NCBI GenBank assembly: GCA_003663325.1
Contig: QMZT01000014.1
Span: 1 to 20,875, forward strand
Length of the DNA stretch: 20,875 bases
Direction of reading: 5' to 3'
Source of the DNA: Candidatus Aenigmatarchaeota archaeon
GTDB taxonomy: Archaea; Aenigmatarchaeota; Aenigmatarchaeia; QMZP01; QMZT01
How positions within the stretch are numbered: position 1 is the first letter of the stretch; the number at the start of each line of letters is the position of its first letter. Below are positions 2,389 to 16,931 of the stretch, in pieces. The notes under the pieces were generated by a model, which saw only the letters and a list, made by a program, of their open reading frames with translations, made no database searches and had not been told where the DNA came from. Made by a program: the position numbers and the translations under genes.

Positions 2389-3324
2389 CTATCGCATATC
2401 CTTACTCTTTACTTTCTTTGCATGCTCAATGAGCCTGTGAAGGTAATCAAAGGTAAAGTTTTGCCATTCTTTCCATCTTGTTGGACCAAATCTCTCATAC
2501 CCTTCTATTACCTTTGCTTTTTCTCCCAACTCCTCTGCAGCTGTATGTACCTTTCTCCCGAGCTCTTTAGCCTTCTTATAGACCTCGTAGTAAATCTCTC
2601 TATAGCGATAGTCTCTCAAAAGATGGTGATCTAGTATAACTTTAGACTCTGTATGAGTAATGATATAAAGTGTATTTTCGATAACCTTCTTTAGGTTTTC
2701 AAAGGATGCGAGAAAGCCAAGCAGATAGGAAGGAAAGCCATCCAAAATAAGCAAGCTTGGGTCTTGCTTGGTAATAAGCTTTGCATAACTATTAATGTAC
2801 GGCCCATCTATATCTGAGGAATGTAAAAGCTTGCTATCATTATCCTTTATACTTACCATGATAACCTTGCCCAAATTCGTTCCCTCTACCCCATGCCACA
2901 GAGGTGGTGAGAACTCTATTATTGTGGAACCAAATTTGAATTTCTTATTATCAGCAACCTCTATCTTCTTTGGCTTTACTATTTTTAAAAAATAGCTTGC
3001 CCTTTTCATTTGGCTTGCGTTTATATTATTAAGAGGATCCTTTATTAACAAATGCTTTCCCCTGTAAAGCTCGCTTTGCGGTATATGATGGTCGTAATGG
3101 TAATGGGTTATGATTATTATATCTGCATCCTTGCATGCTTTCTTTATCCTGCCTTTATACTTCATCTTTAATGCAAGCTTTTCGTATCTTGGCAATGGGA
3201 AAGAACCAGTCTCGCCTGCAATCCCAGGGTCAATGCATACTCTAACATCTTTTGTCTCAACAAAAACACAGCTTGATTTAACACCAAAGGAATCGAAGGC
3301 TACATATTTAACTTCCATATTCAA
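2389..3324 (-). CDS. metallo-beta-lactamase-fold hydrolase, archaeal COG2248/UPF0282-like (paralog 1)
   Basis: Contains 'THYHYDHH' (the HxHxDH MBL motif) and the N-terminal 'FDSFGVKSSC..DPG'. It is clearly paralogous to ORF 18666-19613, which shares the same motifs and length. Confidence 0.85.
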   Translation of the reverse strand: MNMEVKYVAFDSFGVKSSCVFVETKDVRVCIDPGIAGETGSFPLPRYEKLALKMKYKGRIKKACKDADIIIITHYHYDHHIPQSELYRGKHLLIKDPLNNINASQMKRASYFLKIVKPKKIEVADNKKFKFGSTIIEFSPPLWHGVEGTNLGKVIMVSIKDNDSKLLHSSDIDGPYINSYAKLITKQDPSLLILDGFPSYLLGFLASFENLKKVIENTLYIITHTESKVILDHHLLRDYRYREIYYEVYKKAKELGRKVHTAAEELGEKAKVIEGYERFGPTRWKEWQNFTFDYLHRLIEHAKKVKSKDMR

Positions 3325-3369
3325 TATTGAACAAAGTTATTAATATGGGTTGTGGGCAAATCTATAATT

Positions 3370-4374
3370 ATGATAATTGCTATCTCTGGCACACCCGCAA
3401 CAGGAAAGACGAGCGTTGCTAATGAGCTTAAGAAATTAATTAATTGGCCTGTTTTTCATTTAAATGAAATGGCTGAAAAGTATGGACTTTACTCGGGATA
3501 TGATGCAGAGAGAGGATGCAAAATAGTGGATATAGAGAAGGTAGCAAAAAGGATCAAAGAGGCAGAGAAAAAGTACAAGAATATTATTATAGAATCCCAC
3601 TATGCTCATGAGATAGAGTGTGATATAGTTATTATTTTAAGAACGAAGGTCAGCACGCTGAGGGCAAGGATGAGAGAGAAGGGCTGGAAGATAGGAAAAA
3701 TAGAGGAGAATGTAATAGCGGAGATAATGGAGGTGTGTAAAACAGAAGCACTAAGCGCTGGAAGGGGCGTCTATGAGATTGATACAACAGGGAGGCATGC
3801 CAGCTATGTAGCCCATGAAATAGCAGAATTTCTAAGGTTATATGTAAATTGCACGAAGAAGGATATTGTTATAAAGGAAAAGCACAAAGCTATGTTAAGA
3901 AAACCATTCGGTAGGGTTATAAAGGATATAAAGGTGATAAAAGGCGTAGTTAAGAATAACAATAAGAAAATGCTAATAAGCGTTGGTGATGTCACATCAA
4001 GCACGCTTGTTGATAACGCAATATTTCCCAATATTATTATCATAGATAACATGGTAAAAAGGAAGGCCTTTAATAAGAAAATAGAATATGGGAGCTATGT
4101 TATAAATGCAAATAACCCAAGAGGAAGGATAACACCCTCTCTATGGAAAAGCGTGCTGAGGGCTATAAATATAGGTAATGACGTTAAAGTTAAGGTTAAT
4201 GGAGAAGAGGATATGGCTGTCATACCGTGTGCCATTTTTGCCCCTAATGGCAGTATTATACTTTATGGCCAACCAGATAACGGTATGGTTATGGTTAATG
4301 TTGATGAAAAAAAGAAGGCAGAGGCGAGGGAAATAGTTAAAATGTTAATGGGTGTGAGTGAGTTTAAGATCTAG
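3370..4374 (+). CDS. fusion protein: N-terminal Fap7/AK6-like P-loop kinase + C-terminal DUF359 (archaeal GTP-dependent dephospho-CoA kinase family) domain
   Basis: The N-terminus 'MIIAISGTPATGKTSV' is a Walker A motif. 'IIIESHYAHEIECDIVIILRTKVSTLRARMREKGW' matches the Fap7/AK6 core. The C-terminal half has 'LISVGDVTSS' and 'VNGEEDMAVIPCAIFAPNGSIILYGQP', matching the VGD and (D/N)GEEDLA(V/L)P hallmarks of DUF359. Alternative start is GTG 3352. Confidence 0.75.
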   Translation: MIIAISGTPATGKTSVANELKKLINWPVFHLNEMAEKYGLYSGYDAERGCKIVDIEKVAKRIKEAEKKYKNIIIESHYAHEIECDIVIILRTKVSTLRARMREKGWKIGKIEENVIAEIMEVCKTEALSAGRGVYEIDTTGRHASYVAHEIAEFLRLYVNCTKKDIVIKEKHKAMLRKPFGRVIKDIKVIKGVVKNNNKKMLISVGDVTSSTLVDNAIFPNIIIIDNMVKRKAFNKKIEYGSYVINANNPRGRITPSLWKSVLRAINIGNDVKVKVNGEEDMAVIPCAIFAPNGSIILYGQPDNGMVMVNVDEKKKAEAREIVKMLMGVSEFKI

Positions 4375-4383
4375 GCGAGGGGT

Positions 4384-5283
4384 ATGTTTAGCTTATTAAA
4401 AAAGAGGATGGCAAGCTCTATAGAGAGGTTTGGAAAAAGGGTAAAAGAGAGGGAGATAAGTGAGAAGGATATAGATGAGTTTATTTCAGACATACAAATA
4501 GATCTGCTCAGCGTGGACATAAGTCTGGAAGTAGTGGAATTTCTCAGGCAAAGGTTAAAGGGGATGCTTGTTGGTATGAGTGTAAAAAGGTCTGAACTAA
4601 AAAGAATAATAGCCAAGGCTATTGAAAATGTTATGCTTGAAATACTAAATGCTGGTAGCTATGAAATAAAAAGTTATGGAAAGGGTACGTGCGTGCTCTT
4701 TCTCGGATTCAATGGGACAGGCAAAACAACAACACTTGCAAAAATAGGCAAATTACTGATGGAAAAGGGCTACAGCGTTGTATTTGCTGCTGGGGATACA
4801 TTTAGAGCTGCAAGTATAGAGCAACTCGCTATACATTCAAAAAAGCTTGGTGTTAAGCTAATAAAGCATAGCTATGGTGCTGATCCAGCAGCCGTTATAT
4901 TTGACGCGATAAAGCATGCCAAGACAAAGGGAATAGATTTTGTGCTTGCCGATACCGCTGGTAGAAGCCACTCGAATAAAAATTTAATGGAAGAGCTTAA
5001 AAAAATTGTCAGGGTTAACAACCCAGAAATCAAATTGCTTATATTAGATTCGCTCAGCGGTATAGATGCTATAGAGCAGGCAAAGATGTTTAATGATACT
5101 GTTGGAATAGATGCCATGATCTTTACAAAGGCTGATGTCAATGAGAAGGGCGGTATCATAATATCTGTCTGCCATGAGATTAAAAAACCTATAGCTTTCC
5201 TTTGTACTGGTCAGAGCTATGATGATATCAAAAGATTTGAAGCAAAAGAATTCGTTAGGCACATTCTACCCTTTCAGGATTAA
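4384..5283 (+). CDS. ftsY: signal recognition particle receptor FtsY (SRP GTPase, NG domain)
   Basis: Contains 'FLGFNGTGKTTTLAKI' (G1), 'DTAGR' (G3) and 'TKADV' (G4). At 299 aa with no M-domain it is FtsY rather than Ffh/SRP54. The GAGGG upstream of the ATG is RBS-like. Confidence 0.9.
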   Translation: MFSLLKKRMASSIERFGKRVKEREISEKDIDEFISDIQIDLLSVDISLEVVEFLRQRLKGMLVGMSVKRSELKRIIAKAIENVMLEILNAGSYEIKSYGKGTCVLFLGFNGTGKTTTLAKIGKLLMEKGYSVVFAAGDTFRAASIEQLAIHSKKLGVKLIKHSYGADPAAVIFDAIKHAKTKGIDFVLADTAGRSHSNKNLMEELKKIVRVNNPEIKLLILDSLSGIDAIEQAKMFNDTVGIDAMIFTKADVNEKGGIIISVCHEIKKPIAFLCTGQSYDDIKRFEAKEFVRHILPFQD

Positions 5284-7401
5284 AATAAACGTTAACAGTT
5301 TGAGAAGGAAAGGAAGAATGCTTGAGCTTGTAAGCCCAAAAATGGGAATCAAGAAAATGGTACAGGCTAGCGCACCTATGCATGCTCCGCCAAGATCTGC
5401 AGCATAAAGCCTCCCTGTCGTTTCCTCAATACCCCTCTTTTTACTGAAGTATAATTTTGCCGCCAAGGGAAACTCAAAGCCTACCATAGAGGATATTGTT
5501 AAGGTTATTAATGGAAAGATTATATTTGCTATTATAATTTCCATTTCTGGTGGAAGGGCAGCTATAGATATCATTAATAAAGGCAGCGCTATGGAGTAGA
5601 AGGCTATGGATAGCTCGGTAAATAACAGCGCTCTGTAAGTCAATTTGTTTATTCTCTTATTAGCCAAAAAAGAACCTATTGCTAGGCCAAGCATAAACAT
5701 TGTTACTATAACACCTATTTGTTGATAAACATAACCATATATACTCTGAAATGCTATCAAGATTATTATTTCTAAAAACGATGCGGCAAAACCTGTAGTA
5801 AATATAGCAGCGGGTATGGTATGCCTTGTCAAGATGCCAAAGAAAAGTACAACAAGAGCGATTATAGCAACAATAGCTACTATGCTCGTATGGAAATGAG
5901 CTAGCCAATACTTTATGCCGTAGTAATAGGCAATCGGTCTGAAATCTTCATTAATGATGGGCATTTTTCTTATAACATTATTTATATATTCTATTCTCGT
6001 CTTACTTAGCTCGGAAGATAGATAATACTTATTAACATATTCTGTATCTATGCCGGCCATCATTAGCTCTCCAGAAATGTTGTACGTTAAATTGCCATCG
6101 GAAGCAATAATAAACATGGTATCACCTGGTATTAGCAGGCTGTGATTAAATACGTGAGAAATAGTTGTATAGATCACCGAAACCATATCCCTTGTTGCAT
6201 TGCCTATATAATTTTCCGAACCCGCTAGATTGATCTCAATTACACCATCCTTTTTTAATCTTTTCTTTGCTTCTTGGAAAAACTGAATAGTGTAGAATCT
6301 GTTTATTTGAGCTGTTAGTGGATCTGGAAGGTCTACGATGATAACATCATACTTCTTGTCAGCTGTTTTGATCCATAGCCTCCCATCCATAATAATGGTC
6401 CTTATCTTGCCTTTGGGATACTGCGTAAATATAATCCCAGCTCTTATTATTTCTGGGTCCAGCTCTACATAATCAACACTTGCATTATATTTCATAAGTT
6501 CACCCAAGCTCCCACTTATACCCCCAGATATTAAGAGAACGTCTTTCGCATGCGTTCTTTGGGACATCGCATAATGCACAACCTTTTCACTCATTATGGT
6601 ATTATTTGTGCTAAAAAGCGGCACGCCGTTCTCAAAGAAATTGATTTGGTTTGAGGTCTTTGTAATAACTAGGAATCCATAGGGTGTGTTTTTATTGAGA
6701 AGTATCTCTTGCCCTTTATACATCTGCTTAAGTGTTAAGGAATGGATATCAAGCAATAACGGTATGGAAAGAAGTAAGATGGAAAGAAGGAAAAGGGAGG
6801 CTGGATATTTTTTATTGACAGCATAGGAGAGCAGGCAAGAGGCAAGGAGGTTTATAAACATAACAATATATGCCATCTGAAAGGAATTGAAAAGAAAAAT
6901 GAGAATAAAGGAAAATATGAAGCCGCCTAGTATATCTCCTATATTATCTATGAAATAAATTTTTCCTATATCCTCGCCCCTCCTTTTTTCAGAATAAAGG
7001 GAGGCAGCAAATGTTAATAACATGCCCGAGATAAAGCAGTATGGGAAAAGTATAAGGAAAGGGTAAGTTATAACCTCTGTAAAGCCTGCCATTACACCAT
7101 AGACAAGCGCGTTTGTTTTTATTGTTCTGGTTAGATAAAAGGAAATGAATGGTAAAACAGCTATAATTAATTGCAATGCAATAAACAGCTTGTTTCTTTT
7201 GAAAAGGTTTGGTATGTACTTTGCAAAGTAGCTCCCAATACCATTAATCAAAAGCCAATCCATCAATATTATTCCAACTACAAGCTCATTTCCATTAAAT
7301 ATATTTAGAAATTCTCTCAATATAGCAAGCTGCGTGACCATGGAAGATATACCGAGTGCTGTTACACTAAATAATAAAGCATTTCTCTTGTCTATGTGCA
7401 T
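5266..7401 (-). CDS. polytopic membrane protein with embedded spermidine-synthase-like (PABS) domain
   Basis: Multiple hydrophobic segments lie at both ends. The central 'VLLISGGISGSLGELMKYNASVDYVELDPEI' and 'DVIIVDLPDP' correspond to the SpeE GGGDGG and DVIIVDSTDP blocks. It overlaps the ftsY 3' end by 18 nt (convergent). Confidence 0.8.
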   Translation of the reverse strand: MHIDKRNALLFSVTALGISSMVTQLAILREFLNIFNGNELVVGIILMDWLLINGIGSYFAKYIPNLFKRNKLFIALQLIIAVLPFISFYLTRTIKTNALVYGVMAGFTEVITYPFLILFPYCFISGMLLTFAASLYSEKRRGEDIGKIYFIDNIGDILGGFIFSFILIFLFNSFQMAYIVMFINLLASCLLSYAVNKKYPASLFLLSILLLSIPLLLDIHSLTLKQMYKGQEILLNKNTPYGFLVITKTSNQINFFENGVPLFSTNNTIMSEKVVHYAMSQRTHAKDVLLISGGISGSLGELMKYNASVDYVELDPEIIRAGIIFTQYPKGKIRTIIMDGRLWIKTADKKYDVIIVDLPDPLTAQINRFYTIQFFQEAKKRLKKDGVIEINLAGSENYIGNATRDMVSVIYTTISHVFNHSLLIPGDTMFIIASDGNLTYNISGELMMAGIDTEYVNKYYLSSELSKTRIEYINNVIRKMPIINEDFRPIAYYYGIKYWLAHFHTSIVAIVAIIALVVLFFGILTRHTIPAAIFTTGFAASFLEIIILIAFQSIYGYVYQQIGVIVTMFMLGLAIGSFLANKRINKLTYRALLFTELSIAFYSIALPLLMISIAALPPEMEIIIANIIFPLITLTISSMVGFEFPLAAKLYFSKKRGIEETTGRLYAADLGGACIGALACTIFLIPIFGLTSSSILPFLLKLLTFILILKG

Positions 7402-11443: not shown

Positions 11444-11646
11444 TCAATCACCTCCAAGAAAATTGATAAAGAATTGAGACAAAACCAATGAGCGCTCTTT
11501 ATAAGAGCAAGAGCAACAACAAAAGTAGGCAAGTTAGCAAGGTATCGCTGCGGTGCATACAAAACATATTACATGGCTCCATGATTTATTCTTCTATTCC
11601 AAAATATTTAAATCATTATTATACCTGCTGTTTTAAAAATATTTTT

Positions 11647-14600
11647 ATGAGCAAATCCAAATGCATGGTTGCGTTCATTTTATTGGTAGGTTTATTTTTA
11701 GCCGAGCTATGTTTTAGCTACAATACACAAATAGACAAAAAGCTGTACAGCTTTTACACAAGTCAAAAGGACGGGTATGTTGATGTTATAGTAAAAGTAA
11801 AAAACAGCTCTTTGGGCAAATTTCTCTTGAAAGAAGGCGGGATAAGAAGGTATTTAAGGGACAATGCAATTGCGATAAGGGTTAGTATGAGCGAGCTAAA
11901 AAGGCTTATAGAAGCTGGAGATATTGAGCAAATAGGTTTGGATAGAAAGGTGAGACCATTTTTACAGCAATCCGTGCCTTTGATAAGAGCCAATGATACA
12001 TGGAAGCTAAGAGCTGATGGGATAAATATAAGTGGCTCTGGGCTCAGCGTGTGTGTAATCGATACTGGGATAAACTATATGCATCCAGATTTAGGTGGAT
12101 GCAAGCTTATTAGAAATAACTATACAGGCAATATAAAAAGCTACAGGCTTGAGTCGCCCCATGAATATGAAAACTCAACCACATATTTATGGGATATAAC
12201 TATGCCAGGGTTTACAAAGATAGCAGTTCATTTTAAGAATATAAGCACGGAGGCAAATTACGATTACGTCAAGGTTTACGATAAAGATATGAGATTGCTC
12301 TCCCTCTACTCTGGAGCTCATGAAGACGTATGGACACCATCAGCTAGCGGGAACAGGATTTATATAAAACTTATTACCGATACCTATGTAAGTGGTTATG
12401 GATTTTATATAGATAAGGTTATAAATGGGAGTGTAAATACAACCTACAGCTGGAGTAATTGTACGAAGGTTATAGACGGGTATGATATTTATAATTCTGA
12501 TCAAGATCCGATGGATGATAACGGTCATGGGACGCATGTTGCAGGGATAATAGCTGCAAACGGCAATATATATGGGGTAGCTAAAGATGCTAAGCTTGTT
12601 GTGCTAAAGGTTTTCCCTGCAAACGGTGAAGCAACAGTTAGTGATGTTATAGCTGCTATTGATTGGTGCCTAAACAAAAGCAAGGAGTATAACATAACGG
12701 TAATAAGCATGAGTTTAGGAACAGATGAGCTGTATGACAGCTATTGCGATAATAGCGATATAGAGAATGAGCTAATGGCTAACGCTATAGATGATGCAGT
12801 AAGCATGAATATAAGTGTTGTTGTTGCTACAGGAAATGATGGCTCAACCAGCGGCGTGTCTTCTCCAGCATGTATAAAAAATGTGATAAGGGTCGGCTCG
12901 ACAACAAAAAGTGATACTATTTCCTCCTTTACCAATAGAGGAGCAAACTTTAGCGATATAATACTTGCCCCTGGGAGTAGTATAAACTCAACATGGAACA
13001 ACGGATATGCTATCAAGGATGGTACAAGCATGGCCGCGCCGCATGTATCCGGAGCCATAGCATTAATAGTGCAAGCGTATAGATCCGAGTATGGAATCAT
13101 GCCGCTCCCTCAAACTATAAAAGACATTATAATCAACACAAGTAAGAAAATATATGATTCCGCAACAGACATCAATTTCAGCAGAATTGATGTGTACAGC
13201 GCTGTTACCTCTATATTATTCCCATCCATAAAGATAGAGTCCCCATTAAATAGAGCATATAACACAAGCAACATACACTTCAACATAACTGTCAATAAAG
13301 CATTAATCAATGCTACATTTAGTATTAACAACGGCACGAATTCGAGCATGAAAAATGACACCTTATTCCATTGGTATAATACATCTTATATGCTTGAGGA
13401 CGGGCACTATAACGTAACATTTTATGTGCAGGCCATTAACAATTACAGCAACTCAGCAACAGCTCATTTTATTGTAGACACCACCCCACCAAAAATAGAT
13501 TTCATCCAGCCAACACCAAAAAACAACAAGATAATCAATACAACCACACTCTATATCAATATATCAATCAATGAATCAAATCCCTCTACACTTATTTTAT
13601 ATTTAAACGACACCATGGCTTTTGCCTACAATATCCATAATAGTGAGTGGCTTGATATAACACTTAATCTTTCTGATGGTAAATATGAATATTATGCGTG
13701 GGCTAATGACAGTGCTGGCAATAAAAATCAAACAGAGGAGAGAAATATAAGCATAGACACTACTCCACCATCTTTAACCCTTGTTGTGCTTAATCCTGAG
13801 GTAATCGAAGGGGAGAACATAACATTTCTTTTGAATGCAACCGATAACATATTGCTCTCTACCGTCTGGTACACAATAAGCAACGAAACCTTTTCTAAGC
13901 ATTATATTGTTTCCCATACCTCCATTTTTGGTGAATATACAATAAACTATAATACATCCAATATTAGCATTGGTAGCTACAACCTTACCGCATACGCTAA
14001 CGATAGCGTTGCCCATACAACCCATTATAGCTTGCGCTTTACTGTGTCTCAGGGGGTAGAGTTAAGGGTAAGGATTAGGGATAGAGAAGGTGTGGAGAAG
14101 AATATTAGCAATATAGCAATACTATACCAAAGTACTGGATGGAAGAGGAATGAAAGTTACAACACAAGCACGCTTTATTCTTTTTTGCCTGCTGGCTTTT
14201 GGAAAATAGAAATAATTGATAACACCTTCAACGCAACGCTTTTCAATGTAAATATAAGCCAAAATGAGAGCATAGATATGGTGATAGACAAGCTTAATGA
14301 AAGCAAGATAAATGTTGCTGATATATCACAGCTAACAAGGAACATAGCAAAGGCTGTATTTTTCCATACAAATGCTAGTGCCAGCTATACTATTATAAAA
14401 ATACCATATAATAGCTCAAGGCTTGATGAGACGAAGATGTCTATATTCGTATGCCACAACTTTACAAATTATGAATGCAAGGATGGGTGGGAGAATATAA
14501 CCAATACAACATCTATAGACTATGACAATGATATAGTTAGCCTCAACCTTACAGCATACTCTGCAATCGTAATAACACAAGATAAGTACTGCGGTGATGG

Positions 14601-15435
14601 TATAAAGGATGAATGGGAGGAATGTGATAACACAGACTTTAATGGAAAAACATGTTCAACTTACGGTTTCGCATACGGTAACCTTTTATGTAGTAATGAA
14701 TGCAGGATAATAACAAGTAACTGCTATAATATTGCTAAAACACCTGCAATATTTATTCCACTCAAGAAAATAAAGAAAAAGGTTTATAATGCTACTATAG
14801 CCTTACCAGAAAAAGTAATTAAAGGGCGTGTTGGCACGAGGCTGGCTGTACCACTAACCATACATAATACAGGAAATAGCGTGATTAATGCTGAGCTAAT
14901 TATAAATTCCACATGCAACCTCACTCTATATAAACCCATATATGATATCATCTTGCACCCCGGGGATGAAGAAAACATAACTATACATTTTACCCCAAGC
15001 CAGGTAGGTAGTTGCGTGCTTCATTTCTATCTGCTTCACGAGAAAGTAAAATTACATAAAGAGCTAAGGCTGGAAGTGATGAAGAAAATACCGTGTAATT
15101 ATAACCATGTGTGCGAGGAGTGGGAGAGCAAGGAGTGCAAGGATTGTGCAAAGAAGGTATGCATACAGGTTATAACCCCTGCCATTTCTCCAGAAGGTAT
15201 ATGCAAAGAATTTCCCACGCCATGCGATGTACCAAATGGCTGGAAAATCGTGGATAAGTGCGAAAAAAGTGTAAGAGAGCTAAAGGAAATAGAACAAGAG
15301 AGAAAGAAACCATCCAAATACACACCGCACACAAACCCATATATTCCATATATTTACATAATACACGGCTTGATGGTATCCTTGCCGATAGCATTTCTAT
15401 TACTATTTGTTAAGTTTTGGTTAAATATGACCTAA
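11647..15435 (+). CDS. membrane-anchored S8 subtilisin-like serine protease / surface glycoprotein (about 1263 aa from ATG 11647)
   Basis: The catalytic triad is present in context: 'CVIDTGINYMHPDL' (Asp), 'HGTHVAGIIAANG' (His) and 'GTSMAAPHVSGAIALI' (Ser). Signal peptide is 'MSKSKCMVAFILLVGLFLAELCFS'. A CUB-like segment lies between Asp and His. There are dozens of N-x-S/T sequons, a 'VDTTPP' repeat at two sites, a 'CGDGIKDEWEECDNTDFNG' Cys-rich repeat and a CARDB-like segment. The C-terminal TM is 'IIHGLMVSLPIAFLLLFV'. The track ORF begins at 11488. The 53 upstream codons lack signal-peptide character. Confidence 0.9.
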   Translation: MSKSKCMVAFILLVGLFLAELCFSYNTQIDKKLYSFYTSQKDGYVDVIVKVKNSSLGKFLLKEGGIRRYLRDNAIAIRVSMSELKRLIEAGDIEQIGLDRKVRPFLQQSVPLIRANDTWKLRADGINISGSGLSVCVIDTGINYMHPDLGGCKLIRNNYTGNIKSYRLESPHEYENSTTYLWDITMPGFTKIAVHFKNISTEANYDYVKVYDKDMRLLSLYSGAHEDVWTPSASGNRIYIKLITDTYVSGYGFYIDKVINGSVNTTYSWSNCTKVIDGYDIYNSDQDPMDDNGHGTHVAGIIAANGNIYGVAKDAKLVVLKVFPANGEATVSDVIAAIDWCLNKSKEYNITVISMSLGTDELYDSYCDNSDIENELMANAIDDAVSMNISVVVATGNDGSTSGVSSPACIKNVIRVGSTTKSDTISSFTNRGANFSDIILAPGSSINSTWNNGYAIKDGTSMAAPHVSGAIALIVQAYRSEYGIMPLPQTIKDIIINTSKKIYDSATDINFSRIDVYSAVTSILFPSIKIESPLNRAYNTSNIHFNITVNKALINATFSINNGTNSSMKNDTLFHWYNTSYMLEDGHYNVTFYVQAINNYSNSATAHFIVDTTPPKIDFIQPTPKNNKIINTTTLYINISINESNPSTLILYLNDTMAFAYNIHNSEWLDITLNLSDGKYEYYAWANDSAGNKNQTEERNISIDTTPPSLTLVVLNPEVIEGENITFLLNATDNILLSTVWYTISNETFSKHYIVSHTSIFGEYTINYNTSNISIGSYNLTAYANDSVAHTTHYSLRFTVSQGVELRVRIRDREGVEKNISNIAILYQSTGWKRNESYNTSTLYSFLPAGFWKIEIIDNTFNATLFNVNISQNESIDMVIDKLNESKINVADISQLTRNIAKAVFFHTNASASYTIIKIPYNSSRLDETKMSIFVCHNFTNYECKDGWENITNTTSIDYDNDIVSLNLTAYSAIVITQDKYCGDGIKDEWEECDNTDFNGKTCSTYGFAYGNLLCSNECRIITSNCYNIAKTPAIFIPLKKIKKKVYNATIALPEKVIKGRVGTRLAVPLTIHNTGNSVINAELIINSTCNLTLYKPIYDIILHPGDEENITIHFTPSQVGSCVLHFYLLHEKVKLHKELRLEVMKKIPCNYNHVCEEWESKECKDCAKKVCIQVITPAISPEGICKEFPTPCDVPNGWKIVDKCEKSVRELKEIEQERKKPSKYTPHTNPYIPYIYIIHGLMVSLPIAFLLLFVKFWLNMT

Positions 15436-15920: not shown

Positions 15921-16931
15921 CTACCCCTGTTGAGACTTAAGGGATATATGCACTATTTCTTCTGGCTCCTTAATAAGAGGCTTTCTTACAGCCTTCCTCA
16001 TCATCACAAGCCTTTTCTTAGACCCTGGAACAGAACCATCAACTAGTAAATACGTATTTGGGACAATACCATAACTAACGAATCCTCCTTTTGGAGATAT
16101 ACCACCATCACCTATCTTTAAAATCTTTTTATTATACTCTGTCCTGGTCTGGAAACCAAGCTGACCAGCCATAGCTACAGCTCCTGGAAGAACCCTTGCA
16201 GGTGTGCGTGGTGCAAGATTACCAATATGCCTCCTTTTCTTATTATGCTTTCTGCCCCTTATCTTAACTCCAAACCTCTTAACAACACCTTGATAACCTT
16301 TCCCTTTATCAACAGCCTTAACATCAACGTACTCCCCCTCATCAAACACATCTCTTATTGTTATTTGCTTACCAAGAACAGATCTTGCATACTCCCACTT
16401 CTTTTTGATATCATCCCCGCTAAGTGCAATCTCGAACAATTCCGGTTTCTTTTTCCCAATCCCAGATTCCTTTGGTACAGTATGAACAAGCAGTCTTATA
16501 TCGCTTGCCTTTTCTATTTCATTTTCTATCTCCTTGGCTTTATTCTTATCAATTTTCTTTGGCAGGTCAACCTTTCTTGCGAGATTTTTATCTAAATTTT
16601 CGGCCCATATAACGGTTTTTGTTTTCTTTCCATAGCCTCCCTTTTCATATACCTTTATCCCACAAACAATTACCGGAGGTATATCCAGCACAGTCACAGC
16701 CTTAACCACTTCTTGCCCATAGGTTGCTGAACCTTTTTTATTATCCTTAATACATACATGCAACATACCAGCTTTGTACCCGCAGAACGCAACGGGTTTA
16801 ACATCCTTAATAATACCGCTGATCCTTTCCAAATACTCCTCAGAGTAACTAAAGTTTTGATAGATCCTATTGGCTCTTTTCCTGGGCCAAAATGCCCTGG
16901 AACCAGCAACAGGCTTGTGCCCCTTAGCCAT
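15921..16931 (-). CDS. rpl3: 50S ribosomal protein uL3 (archaeal type)
   Basis: 'MAKGHKPVAGSRAFWPRKRA', 'FCGYKAGMLHV', 'KGKGYQGVVKRFGV' and 'TEYNKKILKIGDG' are all diagnostic for archaeal/eukaryotic L3. Confidence 0.95.
   Translation of the reverse strand: MAKGHKPVAGSRAFWPRKRANRIYQNFSYSEEYLERISGIIKDVKPVAFCGYKAGMLHVCIKDNKKGSATYGQEVVKAVTVLDIPPVIVCGIKVYEKGGYGKKTKTVIWAENLDKNLARKVDLPKKIDKNKAKEIENEIEKASDIRLLVHTVPKESGIGKKKPELFEIALSGDDIKKKWEYARSVLGKQITIRDVFDEGEYVDVKAVDKGKGYQGVVKRFGVKIRGRKHNKKRRHIGNLAPRTPARVLPGAVAMAGQLGFQTRTEYNKKILKIGDGGISPKGGFVSYGIVPNTYLLVDGSVPGSKKRLVMMRKAVRKPLIKEPEEIVHISLKSQQG

Follow-up and report, generated by a model that had tools for sequence, protein, structure and literature searches.

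What does an archaeon gain by joining an ATPase of ribosome assembly to an enzyme of coenzyme A (CoA) synthesis? The question is raised by a gene at positions 3370..4374 of the forward strand of contig QMZT01000014.1 from a Candidatus Aenigmatarchaeota archaeon (assembly GCA_003663325.1), of which a stretch of 20,875 nucleotides (nt), hereafter the window, was analysed. Its product carries an N-terminal Fap7/AK6-type P-loop kinase/ATPase module followed by a DUF359 (arCOG04076) module of the GTP-dependent dephospho-CoA kinase (DPCK) type. Fap7 is an AK6-type P-loop ATPase/adenylate kinase that acts, in archaea and eukaryotes, as the chaperone of uS11 (Rps14) during incorporation of this ribosomal protein into the small subunit, and archaeal DPCK uses GTP to phosphorylate the 3'-OH of dephospho-CoA, giving CoA. 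A preliminary description of the locus had recognised both halves and proposed that their fusion implies a functional coupling, for example nucleotide channelling or a bifunctional enzyme. Our analysis showed that the fusion is genuine, conserved within its clade and rare overall; the protein is probably bifunctional, with two housekeeping modules that act independently of each other.

Architecture of the fusion protein

Positions 3352..4374 of the window form one uninterrupted open reading frame (ORF) of 340 codons from a GTG on the plus strand, to which all coordinates of the fusion gene refer, and no stop or frameshift was found in it at the junction of the halves (about 3844-3909), where the preliminary description had advised looking for one. 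The true start is most likely the ATG at 3370, which gives a protein of 334 aa, since all but a few of the 36 aligned homologues begin with MI(I/V)A..GTPG (MIIAI), the NCBI annotation of a protein 100% identical to that of the window (P0001, from a Candidatus Aenigmatarchaeota metagenome-assembled genome) has 334 aa, and a TATA-like TTATTAATAT, read by eye, lies about 28 nt upstream. Residue numbers below follow the 340-aa frame that starts at GTG 3352.

The N-terminal module (aa 7-169, 3370..3858) was recognised as Fap7 by Pfam, NCBIfam, PDB and Foldseek searches alike, as the preliminary description had supposed. Pfam AAA_18 matched aa 9-127 (E 4e-22, 79 bits against a cut-off of 29) and NCBIfam PRK03839, a 'putative kinase', matched aa 7-164 (E 4e-34). 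A phmmer search of the PDB with this half returned Fap7 of Pyrococcus abyssi (aFap7) as the best match (4cvn; 4cvn/4cw7, Fap7-Rps14 complex; E 3.6e-20) and human AK6/hCINAP as the second (5e-13), with no adenylate kinase (Adk) or cytidylate kinase (Cmk) below 0.01. Likewise, Foldseek aligned the N-half of the predicted structure with 4cvn at a template-modelling (TM) score of 0.79 and an rmsd of 1.9 Å, and with Adk or Cmk only at 0.44-0.60. Three other assignments were considered and rejected. The archaeal CMP kinase model TIGR02173 scored 43 bits against a cut-off of 102; of CoaE (PF01121) the P-loop alone matched (aa 7-41, 15-18 bits against a cut-off of 27); and the module is not the classical Adk of the cell, because that enzyme is encoded by a separate gene (PF00406 and ADK_lid) two genes away in a related locus.

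Residues of aFap7 were mapped onto the module through the PDB phmmer alignment (R96/R100/Y102/K106/E109/E47 in the numbering of PMC4019466, where the roles of the Walker B, ATP-sensing and Rps14-contacting residues are described), and their conservation was followed in 37 fused proteins. In the Walker A motif or P-loop GTPATGKT (aa 13-20, 3388..3411) G13, T14, P15, T17, G18 and K19 are invariant and T20 is Thr in 34 proteins and Ser in three. The Walker B region E81-S-H83 (3592..3600) is equivalent to D71-G-H73 of aFap7, D82/H84 of the yeast protein and H79 of the human one; H83 is present in 37/37, and position 81 is Glu in 33 and Asp in four, a conservative change by which the fused proteins mostly read ESH where aFap7 has DGH. 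The LID segment (3640..3711) contains R97, R106, K110, W112, K116, E119 and N120, which align with the ATP-sensing or uS11-contacting residues of aFap7. R106, K116, E119 and N120 are invariant, K110 (aFap7 R100) is Lys or Arg, and W112 (aFap7 Y102) is Trp, Phe or Tyr; the sole varying uS11-contact position among those tested is E53, with Glu in 21 proteins and Lys in 16. Thus the fold, Walker A, the Walker B His, the LID Arg and most uS11-contact residues are those of Fap7, and the module differs from aFap7 in a longer NMP hairpin of eukaryote-like length. The motifs quoted in the preliminary description are all present: GTPATGKTS at aa 13-21 (nt 3388-3414), ESHYAHEIECDIVIILR at aa 81-97 and KGW at aa 110-112, as well as VGDV at aa 211-214 (nt 3982-3993) and NGEEDMAV..P at aa 283-292 in the C-terminal half.

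The C-terminal module (aa 172-333, 3865..4350) belongs to DUF359, and no search assigned it to an unrelated family. Pfam DUF359 (PF04019) matched aa 215-331 over profile positions 1-124 of 126 (E 1.7e-33, 115-117 bits against a cut-off of 25), and the NCBIfam model 'GTP-dependent dephospho-CoA kinase' matched aa 176-331 (5e-30). In the PDB, phmmer found the GTP-dependent DPCK of Thermococcus kodakarensis, TK1697 (8jvc, E 7e-22), and Foldseek of the modelled half against 8jvc/8jvg/8jvf gave E 1.5e-15 and target-normalised TM scores of 0.77-0.85. The DPCK function of the family is established both genetically, by CoA auxotrophy, and biochemically, and mutagenesis of TK1697 showed that Asp48, Asp67 and Asp125 are needed for activity (PMC6650551). 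With about 30% identity to TK1697 (8jvc, 8jvf, 8jvg), the C-half has the same fold and keeps the three catalytic Asp together with the VGD and GEED motifs: VGD213 (3982..3990) corresponds to Asp48, D232 (4045..4047) to Asp67 and GEED287 (4201..4212) to Asp125, and G212, D213, D232, G284, E285, E286 and D287 are found in 37/37 fused proteins. TK1697 itself is about 177 aa long and stands alone, its gene lying upstream of ribosomal-protein genes, whereas here the DPCK is the C-half of a 334-aa protein.

The mean pairwise identity of the fused proteins is 54% in the N-half and 42% in the C-half. Because the catalytic residues are invariant at such low identity, both halves look catalytically competent and appear to be under purifying selection, which lends support to the 'bifunctional enzyme' of the preliminary description.

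Conservation and origin of the fusion

The junction (aa 165-186, 3844..3909) leads from the end of Fap7 helix alpha7 directly into the N-terminus of DUF359 (..DIVIK..LRKPFG), without a flexible linker, and the distance from the invariant T145 to G187 is 40-42 residues in all 37 homologues. An AlphaFold2 model of the window protein, obtained with the 37 homologues, had a mean predicted local confidence (pLDDT) of 92.6, with 91-93 over the junction, and a predicted TM score (pTM) of 0.87; that of a second fused protein, P0033, 39% identical to the first, reached a pTM of 0.89. As each of the two domains has about 165 aa, such values imply that the halves hold a defined mutual orientation in the predicted structures. 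Canonical archaeal Fap7 proteins continue after helix alpha7 into a C-terminal extension with the motif PG[KS][IV]DW, which packs against the NMP domain and contributes to the interface with Rps14 (PMC4019466). The fused proteins lack this extension and have the whole DPCK domain in its place, beginning at that very point. Present in other archaeal Fap7s, the extension is also absent from the close solo Fap7s (L011-L017 and L022); the closest of the solo proteins share with the fused ones an unusual ESHYAH Walker B region and stop right after helix alpha7, having neither extension nor DPCK.

A search for the same architecture elsewhere, proposed in the preliminary description, returned at least 38 clusters (at 90% identity) with both Pfam domains. 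Apart from P0037, a fragment of 264 aa, these proteins have 324-349 aa and are 37-53% identical, and the named clusters come almost entirely from Aenigmatarchaeota (DPANN). Ten GTDB species representatives, one of them the complete 742-kb chromosome CP070804.1, encode both domains in a single ORF; the complete 875-kb chromosome CP066684.1, by comparison, carries a solo Fap7. That the two domains are normally separate, as had been stated, was borne out when 1.84 billion cluster representatives were scanned exhaustively with HMMER: of the 6,229 that are related to one half or the other, about 14 span the junction, and about 99.8% of the roughly 6,200 family representatives are single-domain. It is on these counts, the 38 clusters, the 10 GTDB representatives and the few junction-spanning relatives, that we call the fusion genuine, clade-conserved and rare. 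One homologue, P0081 (424 aa), continues beyond the Fap7-DPCK fusion with a further tail of about 90 C-terminal residues that is very rich in Lys and Arg. Two archaeal-type proteins were met under bacterial names, a Fap7-DPCK fusion as 'Candidatus Peribacteraceae bacterium' (P0003) and a Fap7 with a PGSVDW tail as 'Desulfobacteria bacterium' (L037), and their contigs are therefore probably mis-binned.

The closest 'standalone' DPCKs to the fused clade (P0102, P0110 and P0108) turned out to be truncated or frameshifted fusions. P0102 (L081:1-558) and P0110 (L087:1-633) lie near contig ends, and the C-terminal helix of Fap7 can be read in frame upstream of both; gene callers label them as standalone 'UPF0218/DUF359' proteins, which could mislead architecture counts and marker-gene statistics. 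P0108 comes from L086:3090-4072 (Logan assembly ERR15087788), where fap7 and DUF359 form two ORFs that lie in different frames with 26 nt between them. Since the conserved N-terminus of DUF359 continues upstream of the called ATG, the locus reads as a former fusion with a one-base frameshift in its linker, by real fission or by an assembly error, rather than as an ancestral gene pair.

The surroundings of the fused genes locate the event. Aenigmatarchaeota share a conserved gene order of RFC small subunit (-), fap7 (+) and M48 peptidase (+): the M48 gene follows Fap7 in the solo genomes L011, L012, L014, L015, L017, L022, L029, L035 and L074, and in the fused genomes L005/L082, L006, L007, L010, L085 and L086 the DPCK module stands exactly between Fap7 and M48. 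By its position, then, the fused N-module is the orthologue of the Fap7 that belongs to this lineage, and no second Fap7 copy was found within +-10 kb of the fused genes. In five of these loci (L011, L014, L015, L017 and L086) the cluster is longer, running CarS - dNK/Tmk-like kinase - classical Adk - RFC small subunit on the minus strand and fap7 - M48 peptidase - prenyltransferase on the plus strand, so that three nucleotide kinases stand close together.

Standalone DUF359 genes have a different setting. In about 40 of the 44 loci examined, from methanogens and other archaea (GTDB, L018-L080), rps24e and then rps27ae come after the DUF359 gene on the same strand, with gaps of 3-90 nt to rps24e where it was detected and with rps27ae about 310-470 nt downstream. 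This DPCK-eS24-eS31 cluster was seen in Methanobacteriales, Methanosarcinales, Methanoregula, DHVE2 and others, and ribosomal-protein genes also lie downstream of TK1697 (PMC6650551). Neither the window gene nor the other fused loci compared have this context; in one fused genome (L085) the S24e-S27ae pair lies 9 kb away. Unlike TK1697, the fused DPCK has thus moved out of the operon with S24e and S27ae and is joined at its N-terminus directly to helix alpha7 of Fap7.

Read-through of a conserved adjacent gene pair was considered as the origin of the fusion and rejected: eight related Aenigmatarchaeota genomes have no DUF359 in the 10 kb on either side of their solo Fap7, and the only 'split' locus, L086, is the frameshifted fusion described above. 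A profile search for DUF359 elsewhere in the solo-Fap7 genomes found none attributable to them among the best 120 matches, and an HMM scan of the collected loci likewise gave none. The only neighbourhood of the two genes outside Aenigmatarchaeota in our set, L052:1643-4060 from Methanosarcinales UBA261, has a standalone fap7 (+) and a DUF359 (-) 1.2 kb apart in convergent orientation and is probably due to chance. In bootstrapped neighbour-joining trees the fused C-halves were monophyletic in 2/100 replicates, the fused N-halves without the solos in 0/100 and fused plus solo sequences in 43/100, the ESHYAH solos being placed among the fused sequences. The fusion is restricted to one subclade of Aenigmatarchaeota, in which it was formed at the resident fap7 locus. 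As to the order of events, the scenario we prefer is that a single fusion displaced the extension and that the DPCK part was later lost in some lineages; PF04019 is often lost in DPANN (PMC8421398, PMC10134863).

Function of the joined modules

We infer from these data that the window gene probably encodes a bifunctional protein whose modules work independently. The N-module would serve as the lineage's own Fap7, using ATP in the handling of uS11 and the maturation of the small subunit, and the C-module would convert dephospho-CoA to CoA with GTP. Aenigmatarchaeota rely on acetyl-CoA enzymes (PMC8407114) and therefore need CoA. In this scheme, DPCK would have been joined to fap7 at the point of the PGxIDW extension and so have left the eS24/eS31 operon, and the benefit of the fusion would be that a very compact genome always expresses two housekeeping kinases together and in a 1:1 ratio, with no metabolite passing between them.

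The conclusion of the preliminary description that the fusion by itself implies functional coupling was not supported, because DUF359 is a promiscuous fusion partner that is also joined to unrelated domains: to PPAT, to a DHH/DHHA1 phosphoesterase (P0174, 494 aa) and to TYW3, the wybutosine tRNA methyltransferase (P0200, 370 aa; a member of the same cluster lies on a 1.37-Mb NCBI contig). PPAT-DUF359 proteins, described from uncultured archaea by Shimosaka et al. 2019 and seen here in P0042, P0044 and L061, resemble the fusion studied in having the DPCK at the C-terminus after a very short linker, and so does the eukaryotic COASY (PPAT-DPCK). In those proteins, however, the partner performs the preceding step of the CoA pathway and the union has a metabolic logic, whereas here the partner is a ribosome-assembly ATPase without a shared substrate; the window protein had no Pfam match to the PPAT domain PF01467.

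Several observations weigh against two competent and independent modules. The N-half scored 118-122 bits with PRK03839, under the equivalog cut-off of 152, and the C-half scored 104-107 bits with NF041125 against an equivalog cut-off of 300, although the latter model is named for Thermococcales and is a weak test for divergent DPANN proteins. As to the supply of substrate to the DPCK module by PPAT and the earlier steps of CoA synthesis, a profile search gave no PPAT attributable to the fused genomes among its best 120 matches, nor did an HMM scan of the collected loci. The neighbour-joining trees do not separate one origin of the fusion from several. Finally, a confidently predicted rigid interface, a fixed junction and the replacement of a uS11-contacting element exceed what pure co-expression would need, and for this reason there may be some coupling between the halves.

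If there is coupling, its best form is a link to small-subunit biogenesis, which we regard as unlikely but as the strongest competitor of the bifunctional, independent protein. The DPCK, replacing the Fap7 extension at the uS11 face, would then take part in uS11 handling, tie the maturation of the small subunit to GTP or CoA status, or have a second role connected with the ribosome. Two independent genomic links speak for this, the association of about 40 of 44 standalone DUF359 genes with rps24e and rps27ae (compare PMC6650551) and the fusion to Fap7 itself; in addition, the module is attached where the aFap7 extension contacts Rps14, the pTM is high and the junction fixed, TYW3-DUF359 provides another translation-related partner, and P0081 has its Lys/Arg-rich tail. 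In its general form the idea is that archaeal DPCK has both a physical and a functional tie to small-subunit biogenesis, since in most other archaea it is co-transcribed with eS24/eS31 and here it would replace the uS11-contacting extension of Fap7 and make up a rigid unit with it; this seems to us slightly less probable still. Against both stands the fact that metabolic kinases commonly ride in ribosomal-protein operons: adk and cmk sit in the spc operon, and co-regulation with growth is the mundane account. Related Aenigmatarchaeota also manage with a Fap7 that has neither extension nor DPCK, and the fusion retains the catalytic residues of a family whose DPCK function is established by genetics, through CoA auxotrophy, and by biochemistry (PMC6650551).

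Nucleotide channelling, in which the Fap7/AK6 module would supply or recycle the nucleotide of the DPCK, is very improbable. The two modules share one rigid polypeptide and are both phosphotransferases that depend on nucleotides, AK6-type enzymes have been reported to have broad nucleoside monophosphate (NMP) kinase specificity, and JGI names some homologues 'broad-specificity NMP kinase'. Nevertheless, the proposal has no chemical basis, because Fap7 (ATP, AMP) and DPCK (GTP, dephospho-CoA) have no common intermediate and no product of one module is a substrate of the other, contrary to what the preliminary description had suggested. NMP kinases yield nucleoside diphosphates and DPCK needs GTP, while its product GDP is no substrate of an NMP kinase (PMC6650551, PMC4019466). 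Moreover, the AMP site is filled by the tail of uS11 in the aFap7-Rps14 complex (PMC4019466), and the fusion is limited to one small clade, its relatives having apparently lost it repeatedly or never gained it.

We give equally little credence to the view that one module is a dead scaffold, be it a Fap7-like domain stabilising the DPCK or a relic DPCK in a host-dependent importer of CoA. The frequent loss of PF04019 in DPANN (PMC8421398, PMC10134863), the existence of solo-Fap7 relatives and the scores of both halves under the NCBIfam cut-offs would fit it, but the known catalytic residues of both halves are invariant over 37 sequences that are on average only about 42-54% identical, and this points to purifying selection on catalysis itself. 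That a sequencing or assembly error merged two adjacent genes in this metagenome-assembled genome is effectively refuted, for although the L086 relative shows the halves as separate ORFs, that locus is a frameshifted fusion whose DUF359 N-terminus runs upstream of its ATG, at least 37 independent assemblies give one ORF, and base composition is even over the junction of the window gene (GC 0.34-0.41).

Each half of the protein is a known family, and it is their combination that appears to be undiscussed in the searchable literature. No paper there deals with Fap7 together with dephospho-CoA, the family identifiers are rarely mentioned, and the papers on the discovery of the enzyme, Shimosaka et al. 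2019 (PMC6650551) among them, report only PPAT fusions of DUF359. The preliminary description, which knew of no account of such a fusion, was thus right as far as the literature goes; the architecture itself can already be met in public databases, where automatic annotation gives it names such as 'broad-specificity NMP kinase/uncharacterized protein (UPF0218 family)'.

Fap7 and DPCK are both members of the near-universal core of archaeal genes. The long-missing archaeal DPCK was identified through the clue that gene fusions of DUF359 gave, and a second conserved partner is hence worth notice. If the modules are independent, as we favour, the protein is a tidy case of genome compaction in DPANN. 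If they are coupled, the fusion links cofactor synthesis to archaeal ribosome assembly and offers a testable reason for the presence of DPCK in a small-subunit ribosomal-protein operon across many archaea; a true tie to small-subunit biogenesis would make it a 'Rosetta stone' either for a second, ribosome-related role of DUF359 or for a checkpoint of 30S maturation on GTP/CoA status. In practical terms, PF04019 is a CheckM single-copy marker, and broken fusions that pass as standalone DPCKs affect annotation.

Neighbouring genes in the window

None of the neighbours of the fusion gene in the window is common to the other fused loci compared. Upstream, a gene of the metallo-beta-lactamase fold (2389..3324, minus strand; Pfam Lactamase_B) is divergent to the fusion gene, and the short intergenic region between them is the site of the putative fusion-gene promoter. 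Downstream, ftsY, which encodes the signal recognition particle (SRP) receptor (4384..5283, plus strand; Pfam SRP54 and SRP54_N), begins 9 nt after the fusion gene, and the two are probably co-transcribed, in this genome only. Convergent with ftsY and overlapping its 3' end by 18 nt, a minus-strand gene (5266-7401) encodes a 711-aa protein whose translation looks strongly hydrophobic by eye and which contains a spermidine/spermine-synthase domain at aa 268-388.

Further away, at 1285-2350 on the minus strand, the gene for a 204-aa nucleotidyltransferase of the Pol-beta type shares 11 nt with an ORF of 153 aa that has no Pfam match, a layout that resembles an MNT/HEPN-type toxin-antitoxin pair. 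A plus-strand gene at 11488-15435 encodes an S8 subtilase of 1,315 aa that has immunoglobulin-like domains and into which a CUB domain is inserted, and the gene for ribosomal protein uL3 lies at 15921-16931 on the minus strand, with a gene for a PAP2 phosphatase beside it on one side.

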